64,000 bases of DNA from an uncultured Verrucomicrobiae bacterium (GTDB taxonomy: Bacteria; Chlamydiota; Chlamydiia; Chlamydiales; Rhabdochlamydiaceae): contig OY970364.1 of the NCBI GenBank assembly GCA_963718565.1, positions 1,120,001 to 1,184,000 of the forward strand, given 5' to 3'. The position numbers and the translations under genes were made by a program. The notes beneath the pieces are model-generated. The model had not been told where the DNA came from and ran no database searches. It was given only the letters and a program-made list of their open reading frames with translations. This document shows positions 23,993 through 24,937 of the stretch, piece after piece (within the stretch, counting starts at the first letter, position 1; the number at the start of each line of letters is the position of its first letter).

Positions 23993-24937
23993 ATGGAACT
24001 TCGAGAATGGGCCATACGCATTCTCAGTGCAGATACACTGGAAGAGAAGCTCTTTAAACCAGAAACATTGACTGATTTCGATCCAGGCGCTCCTCTGCTC
24101 TTTGAAGAACCGACACGCCCTCCTGGAATGCATTTCCAGCGTCACACAAGCCGGGAAAAACTTCCTGCTTTTCAAGAACATCGCAATCCCGATAAACGCG
24201 CTGTTTGCCTGCATCGCTTTGCCGGCCATGAGCTACTGGCCGTGGAGATCATGGCGCAAGCACTTCTTGCATTTCCTACTGCCCCAAAACATTTTCGAAA
24301 AGGCGTCGCTAATACATTGCAAGAAGAGCAAGGGCATGTCCGTCTTTATATTTCAAGGATGGAAGCATTGGGATTGAAATTTGGGGATCTGCCTCTTTAT
24401 CGCCACTTTTGGGCTTATGTCCCCCATCTCACCTCCCCTATCCGTTACGTGAGCGTCATGAGTTTGACATTTGAAATGGCCAATCTCGACTTTGCTCCCA
24501 TGTATGGCAAATCCTTTTCCCGTGTTGGCGATGATCTTTCTGCTGCTTTAATGCAACAAATTTTAGAAGATGAAATTCATCATGTCTCATTTGGAATGAA
24601 CTGGCTCAAGAAATTATACCGCGCGCAGGAAGGTTTTGTGAATTTGGACTCAGCGAGGCAAAGCACAATCGAAGCTTGCAGTCCGAATGACGAAGCCATA
24701 GTGAAAACTATGACTGAGGAAGAGGATCGATTGGGCAAAGCCGCAGCCAGTCCAAATTCACAAAACCTGACGGAGCGCGGTATAAAACAGCCTGAAGTTT
24801 CAGAGTGGGATGTTTGGGAACAAAGCCTTCCTTCGCTCGTGACACCTAAACGCGCAAAAGGGTTTGTTTTGCACGAAGAAATACGCAGGCGCGCTGGCGT
24901 GCCAGAAGAATGGATTCAAAACCTCAAAAACTACTGA
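23993..24937 (+). CDS. Ferritin-like DUF455-type protein carrying an in-frame 56-aa MITE insert
   Basis: HELLAVE, EEQGH, EMANLDF and DEIHHV di-iron-type motifs; insert at 24615-24784. Confidence 0.82.
   Translation: MELREWAIRILSADTLEEKLFKPETLTDFDPGAPLLFEEPTRPPGMHFQRHTSREKLPAFQEHRNPDKRAVCLHRFAGHELLAVEIMAQALLAFPTAPKHFRKGVANTLQEEQGHVRLYISRMEALGLKFGDLPLYRHFWAYVPHLTSPIRYVSVMSLTFEMANLDFAPMYGKSFSRVGDDLSAALMQQILEDEIHHVSFGMNWLKKLYRAQEGFVNLDSARQSTIEACSPNDEAIVKTMTEEEDRLGKAAASPNSQNLTERGIKQPEVSEWDVWEQSLPSLVTPKRAKGFVLHEEIRRRAGVPEEWIQNLKNY
24615..24784. mobile_element. MITE family C (TA-TACCGCGC...GCGCGGTA-TA), in-frame insertion
   Basis: Long imperfect IR (taccgcgc..ggttttgtgaatttggact / agtccaaattcacaaaacct..gcgcggta); TA on both sides; net 168 bp. 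Confidence 0.9.

Follow-up and report, generated by a model that had tools for sequence, protein, structure and literature searches.

How can a long palindromic repeat lie within a conserved gene, and is the corresponding protein made with the additional residues? This question is raised by a gene of the ferritin-like DUF455 family, which is located at positions 23993 to 24937 (plus strand) of the window, i.e. of the 64,000-nt stretch of DNA analysed here. According to the ORF, the Pfam match, the homologues and the predicted fold, its product of 314 aa corresponds to the family length of 258 aa plus an insert of 56 aa. Our preferred explanation, to which we assign a probability of roughly 0.78, is that the insert is a translated MITE of the IS630 type, which is tolerated as a polar linker, and that insertions in other frames have been purged.

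The element and its target site

The original prediction was that a TA-flanked palindrome adds 168 nt to this gene, corresponding to 56 aa without a stop codon, and both the sequence and the ORF confirm this. The 166-bp MITE (24617 to 24782, plus strand) has terminal inverted repeats of approximately 34 bp within a longer imperfect palindrome. It is preceded by the target dinucleotide TA (24615 to 24616, plus strand), which completes the codon of Leu208 as its second and third base, and is followed by the duplicated target TA (24783 to 24784, plus strand). In two relatives (loci L029 and L033) the empty site reads TTA AAA or TTA AAG. Since only a single TA is present there, the element proper comprises 166 bp and one TA was duplicated. 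The net gain is 168 nt, and the element, read in sense phase 1 without a stop, accounts together with the duplicated TA for the residues 209 to 264.

The DUF455 copy differs by one substitution from the majority sequence of six 170-bp copies in the genome, which suggests that the insertion is very recent. Because the copy is so young, the intact host gene is hardly informative about selection after the insertion event.

At the level of RNA the element folds into one long hairpin with a free energy of -81.1 kcal/mol (z -10.7), and none of 200 shuffled sequences was equally stable. An Rfam scan of the region 22000 to 26000 returned only weak matches to miRNA hairpins, far under the gathering cut-offs, and no site resembling an intrinsic terminator was found within the element.

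The left end contributes to an outward-facing sigma-70-like site on the minus strand (24613 to 24642; TTCACA, 18 nt, TATAAT), which matches the consensus at 11 of 12 positions. Two host bases complete this site, which otherwise consists of the left repeat and the TA and faces the 5' portion of the gene in antisense orientation. Possibly this promoter-like site arose as a side effect of the insertion, as can happen at Correia ends. In 37 copies of the element (74 ends), a -35-like hexamer is typically found 18 nt inside a TATA. Since this spacing is built in, a complete outward promoter arises if the flank supplies the right bases. TATAAT is present at six of the 74 ends; the T at the last position was found at 25 of 74, not clearly above chance, and thus complete -10 boxes are not clearly enriched at the element ends.

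We considered whether the repeat was misplaced into the gene during assembly. Local frame breaks do exist nearby: nrdA (27728 to 32131, plus strand) is split over several frames and seems to contain an intein with a putative homing-endonuclease motif. Since nrdA is essential, its frame breaks suggest local assembly indels. At the DUF455 locus, however, the TA duplication is clean and the frame exact, and both junctions are crossed by soil-metagenome contigs, which come from two runs. Contig X1 covers 24254 to 24645 with no difference and reaches 31 bases into the repeat, while contig X4 covers 24616 to 24874 with one difference. None of the soil-metagenome contigs at the locus joins the flanks without the element, although all of them stem from one study, which is possibly the source of the assembly, at a depth of about 3 to 4. 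In addition, no frame change was detected in 72 of 73 genes tested. An assembly artefact thus has a next to negligible probability.

The host protein and the position of the insert

The host protein matches Pfam PF04305 (DUF455) with an E-value of 3.6e-46 and 158 bits, compared to a cut-off of 34.3. A search with this protein found 1142 homologues, of which 120 are listed, and we compared the 119 that are not the query itself. Among these listed matches, 81 of 119 have a length of 258 aa, and none of the 119 has residues in the 56 columns of the insert, so that the query alone among 120 proteins carries it. The alignment of orthologues had been proposed as a test of whether the segment is an insertion, and its outcome is clear. 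Outside the insert the protein is a regular family member: it deviates at none of the 137 columns conserved in at least 90% of the listed homologues, the median of which is two deviations. The residues H79, E80, E85, E112, H115, E161, E194 and H197 are invariant in all 119 listed homologues and are kept in the query. Judging from the pattern of the ferritin-like family, these conserved His and Glu residues would be the metal ligands.

Structure models and fold searches are consistent with this assignment, since they predict a four-helix bundle with the ligand pattern E / ExxH / E / ExxH. The Pfam match, the four-helix bundle and the ExxH pairs are shared by the query and the ferritin-like diiron-carboxylate superfamily, to which DUF455 belongs; the insert distinguishes the query from the other family members compared. 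In the model of an insert-free homologue (pLDDT 94.8), the last helix of the bundle spans the residues 181 to 208 and is followed by a loop of six residues. The insertion point directly after Leu208 coincides exactly with the end of this helix, in line with the predicted position just behind the last metal-ligand helix. When the protein is modelled with its insert, the core is confident and the pLDDT falls below 50 only at residues 215 to 267; low pLDDT is, however, a weak sign of disorder here, because it is to be expected for an insert without aligned homologues. Probably, the insert is a disordered loop that connects the diiron four-helix bundle to a small C-terminal subdomain.

A Foldseek search with the inserted model gave no match at E-values up to 0.001. 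In a wide fold search, the insert-free model matched Dps-like proteins, bacterioferritins and aldehyde-deformylating oxygenases equally well (Z 13 to 14.8), and no single closest family could be named among these tied ferritin-like matches.

The intact reading frame could also belong to an early pseudogene, in which a dispensable gene was hit recently, silenced or crippled, and has not yet decayed. This explanation concerns the DUF455 copy only and would agree with the very young age of the insertion, with the 11-of-12 antisense promoter-like site at its left end and with the patchy occurrence of DUF455: according to a search with the query, the gene is present in 17 of 24 genomes of the family and in two of 16 genomes of other families, and it is frameshifted in one relative genome, which is 56% complete (L038). 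On the other hand, the gene has no further lesion and no changed residue in conserved columns. Moreover, no gene body in the genome is broken by a copy, so that such insertions seem not to linger, the site is a loop as predicted by tolerance, and the frame is the same as in dnaX, lpxK and priA. A beginning pseudogene is therefore unlikely. Most likely, as far as the sequence allows us to judge, the DUF455 protein is made with the insert, which is tolerated rather than an improvement.

Copies in the same genome

Copies of the element in the 2.28-Mb genome were collected by BLAST and by a scan for the element ends. A de novo clustering of repeats placed most families in one cluster, and the counts given here are not based on it. 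Both ends were found for 39 copies, and 27 further ends are unpaired. The element had been considered mobile on the basis of a 90-bp copy with an internal deletion (51078 to 51167, minus strand). This copy is real and intergenic, and its flanking CA direct repeats support a 2-bp target duplication outside of an element ending in TAC, but a single deleted copy is insufficient as proof. The mobility is documented instead by the 39 paired-end copies at unrelated sites, 34 of which have TA at both ends.

Of the ten copies that are 170 or 227 bp long, six are located in frame within genes, and all six are read in sense phase 1. Besides the DUF455 gene with its insert after Leu208, the hosts are an OEP/TolC protein (insert at residue 23), an FtsX/LolE-type permease (residue 386), a TPS-domain protein (near the end of the protein), TsaE (codon 2) and an orphan ORF, which outside of the insert has no homologue in five relatives. 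In four of five relatives searched, both flanks of the permease are found in one shorter frame; the fifth sequence is a fragment. The remaining 29 copies, among them 15 of 172 bp, are all located outside of gene bodies. In both groups, some few copies extend into the final codons of a gene.

According to our own hexamer gene model, which was used for the gene calls, 72% of all TA sites and 82% of those outside repeats are genic. Since no gene body is broken despite this high share, gene-breaking insertions must have been removed. A Fisher test of six in ten versus none in 29 copies within genes is partly circular and was set aside.

Other repeats are frequent in this genome, and repeats with three or more matches cover approximately 11% of it. 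A different inverted-repeat family is present in the window at 24936 to 25151, 22368 to 22632 and 62911 to 63173, one copy of which spans the region from the DUF455 stop codon to the end of rmuC. At least three further MITE-like families were noticed in the window (42785 to 42917, 44508 to 44640 and 61089 to 61221; 49138 to 49354 and 58760 to 58789; 36636 to 36809). In-frame inserts that belong to a family other than that of the DUF455 element are present in two genes, at G000:C1 555827-557326 and 1721019-1722224.

Copies in related genomes and preference for one frame

DNA matches to the element were found in 18 of 24 other Rhabdochlamydiaceae genomes and in none of 16 genomes of other families of the order. 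A first sample was drawn from 150 listed matches of 270: at 72 examined loci there were 63 paired copies, one of which was dropped as an overlapping duplicate. In this sample 26 of 62 copies are located in frame in genes. For 14 of these 26, the window's genome has an insert-free orthologue whose alignment spans the junction. A second sample, obtained by a pattern scan, added 15 new copies, four of which are in genes, all in sense phase 1. Both samples together comprise 77 copies, 30 of them in genes and 27 in sense phase 1.

The host genes in relatives encode, for example, LptB, LpxK, DnaX, LolD, PriA and FolC, and further RecC, RNase R, MtaB, TtcA and a copper ATPase, while ten of the 26 in-gene hosts had no NCBIfam match at an E-value of 1e-30. 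The expected excess of frame-preserving insertions in genes that are not pseudogenes is thus borne out, since the in-gene copies keep the frame and conserved housekeeping genes are among the hosts. A search with the peptide alone yielded 70 representative proteins, and Pfam domains were detected in 12 of the 32 that were scanned; one of these 12, a WD40 protein with 29% identity, is probably a chance match. In dnaX of one relative (G005; L074:2075-2247), the in-frame copy is directly followed by the start of a second copy, and the frame is kept. Altogether, the size of the element is modular and ranges from about 90 to 360 bp.

In the first sample, sense phase 1 is used by 23 of the 26 in-gene copies, compared to 9.8 expected from the open frames weighted by the TA phase frequencies. 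None of 1,000,000 simulations reached 23, although p-values of this kind overstate the case, because copies within a genome share ancestry. The copies had been found by DNA search, which is blind to the frame, and a check of the orientation calls by alignment revealed no mismatch in 63 copies. Other frames were often open in the 26 in-gene copies: antisense-2 in 20, antisense-1 in 17 and sense-2 in eight. In the 16 cases in which sense-1 and antisense-1 are both open, sense-1 is used 14 times, antisense-1 once and sense-2 once. Where sense-1 and sense-2 are both open, the ratio is seven to one in favour of sense-1 (p 0.009). Three in-gene copies use another frame (L055, L065 and L083), namely antisense-1 in a glycoside hydrolase, and antisense-2 and sense-2 near N-termini.

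A bias of the insertion towards the transcribed strand could be considered as the cause of this preference. It is not supported by the intergenic copies between co-oriented genes, ten of which have the same and eight the opposite orientation, and it also fails to account for the avoidance of sense-2.

The frames differ in their products. With a GRAVY of -0.97 and a charge of +0.01 per residue, the sense-1 peptide is polar and near-neutral; the antisense peptides are more hydrophobic and richer in F, W, Y and C, and the sense-2 peptide is basic (+0.17 per residue). A filter acting on the translated peptide is the simplest account of the frame bias. Thus, the preference among open frames points, although indirectly, to translation of the inserts.

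These counts also bear on the idea that the hairpin acts on the RNA, where it would be removed, bypassed or cleaved, so that the peptide is not made. The very high stability of the hairpin agrees with it, and RNase III was described to act on the Neisseria elements (PMC2229807). However, removal from the RNA leaves unexplained why in-gene copies are stop-free and keep the frame, and also why sense-1 is preferred over sense-2, although both have the same orientation. For these reasons, an action at the RNA level is extremely improbable.

Is the peptide beneficial?

The peptide could be a domesticated module, which provides an interaction or regulatory surface for many proteins. It is present in the 70 representative proteins mentioned above, and the in-gene shares of 6/10 here and 23/41 in relatives exceed the approximately 29 to 40% expected if all sense-1 insertions were harmless. 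The hosts, however, have no common function, none of the 119 listed DUF455 homologues has the insertion, and the insert is modelled as disordered. No clear signal of amino-acid conservation was found among the in-gene copies: the four 170-bp in-gene copies in the window's genome have one synonymous and five non-synonymous changes, and in G005 genic and non-genic copies have similar ratios of synonymous to non-synonymous changes. The excess would fit equally to erosion of intergenic copies, of which the 27 unpaired ends may be a trace, or to selection against promoter hits. We therefore regard a benefit as very improbable and retain tolerance of a translated MITE as the preferred explanation.

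It is tempting to speculate that the element lineage itself has adapted to genes, by keeping its length and one open frame that encodes a harmless polar linker, in variants of about 110 to 360 bp. Two observations speak for this: the in-gene share lies above the expectation for full tolerance, and in relatives the length of 52 of 62 copies keeps the frame, which is also true of 26 of the 36 copies outside genes. Against it, this sample was collected by similarity to a copy that itself keeps the frame, and the 172-bp class, with 15 copies the commonest in the window's genome, causes a frameshift and is successful in intergenic regions. Thus, this idea is tentative and in our view rather doubtful. 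If it were true, protein-coding DNA would be a refuge which shields copies from erosion, a camouflage like that of an intein but without splicing, and the spread into this refuge would be under way now through essential genes of a chlamydial family.

Candidate mobiliser and proposed mechanism

With inverted ends of approximately 34 bp, 166 bp in length, a TA duplication and many dispersed similar copies, the element has the traits of a MITE. Its assignment to the IS630 type was part of the original prediction. The TA duplication and the inverted ends agree with it, but the resident IS630 has no more than the terminal TATAC in common with the element, so that it is a candidate mobiliser. The window's genome contains 16 DDE_3 matches, 15 of which have the same score and represent near-identical IS630-type transposases. 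Those resident elements whose ends were examined are about 1.1 kb long and terminate in TATAC; beyond these bases they differ from the MITE. Several MITE families in this genome also begin with TATAC. At G000:C1 (about 352650-353940), an IS630 copy is inserted immediately next to the TATA that ends a 172-bp MITE copy.

In another genome (G013), a DDE_3 element of 943 bp has near-perfect TATACCGAAA ends (L181:1343-2285). These TATACCG ends resemble those of another abundant MITE family in the window's genome, of which it is a candidate parent, and they fit that family better than the family inserted in DUF455. A long, transposase-bearing form with the ends of the DUF455 element was not detected in the loci L051 to L176. 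An IS630-type transposase is a plausible mobiliser, and the link is no stronger than this because the ends differ beyond five bases and because G005 harbours many copies of the element but no DDE_3 match.

The most likely course of events is as follows. A transposase acting in trans would paste the non-autonomous element of the IS630/Tc1-mariner type into a TA and thereby cause the TA duplication that the empty sites reveal. The gene still reads through, because the added length is divisible by three and one of the sense frames is free of stops. In DUF455, the 56 residues would then form a polar loop outside of the bundle and, according to the models, leave the metal site untouched. Selection would remove those insertions which shift the frame, meet a stop or yield a hydrophobic, cysteine-rich or very basic peptide. 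As suggested by the counts, insertions in the benign frame at termini and in loops would persist.

Comparison with known palindromic elements

In the open full-text literature, as judged by titles and the beginnings of abstracts of at most the top 20 matches per search, we found no chlamydial palindromic element or MITE of this kind. PMC9723776 does not mention the terms palindrom, MITE, IS630 or in-frame. The string "chlamyd" is absent from the main texts of PMC10969869, PMC2229807 and bioRxiv 10.1101/2024.01.18.576219, the last of which has supplements that may list chlamydial MITEs.

According to the accessible parts of the literature, the Correia/NEMIS elements of Neisseria (PMC2229807) are MITEs with TA ends that exist in open intragenic and closed intergenic size classes, and this split resembles that between the 170/227-bp and the 172-bp classes described here. 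Their ends can create promoters (PMC2649163). None of our searches suggested homology, and the chlamydial hosts include core replication and envelope genes. In the same partial view, ERIC/IRU and RUP (PMC2229807) share with the chlamydial element the TA termini, the target duplication and the long stem-loop. In-frame fusions are reported for ERIC. RUP, which is said to be intergenic, is ascribed to an IS630 transposase on account of highly similar termini; the chlamydial element shares only five bases.

The closest likeness proposed was that to the Rickettsia palindromic elements (RPEs). NCBIfam includes models of RPEs, and the 56-aa sense-1 peptide matched no NCBIfam model at E-values up to 1; the element thus works like an RPE without being one. 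The proposed analogy is valid for the behaviour. As a type of event it is not new, since in-frame fusions of MITEs were described in Rickettsia, Wolbachia, Neisseria, enterobacteria and an archaeon, as far as these sources could be consulted (PMC10969869, PMC2229807, PMC3767692). In the same sources, about half of the RPE copies are said to lie in frame in unrelated conserved genes, and for the RPE in gmk it was described that guanylate kinase is made with the insert and is active (PMC10969869, PMC2229807). RPE-1 to -3 of Rickettsia and the WPEs of Wolbachia are, as far as described there, short palindromes of an intracellular bacterium with one common peptide, as found here. Likewise, the chlamydial element has a stable palindromic RNA and in-frame copies (6/39 here, 30/77 in relatives). 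It differs from RPEs in belonging to another phylum, in its clean TA duplication, in its young and near-identical copies and in the presence of IS630-type transposases in the genome. The target duplication of RPEs is marked as uncertain in the part of the review available to us, and the chlamydial element is longer and modular, with about 90 to 360 bp.

The comparison is important for several reasons. In environmental chlamydiae, inserts of this kind lengthen proteins, displace the predicted starts and can simulate homology where proteins are unrelated. The preference for one frame represents a natural experiment on which peptides are tolerated by folded proteins. Finally, the coding palindromes of Rickettsia raised the questions of their route into genes and of the factors that determine the survival of an insert; in the chlamydial genomes both questions are testable, because young copies, clean duplications, insert-free orthologues and candidate transposases are found together.
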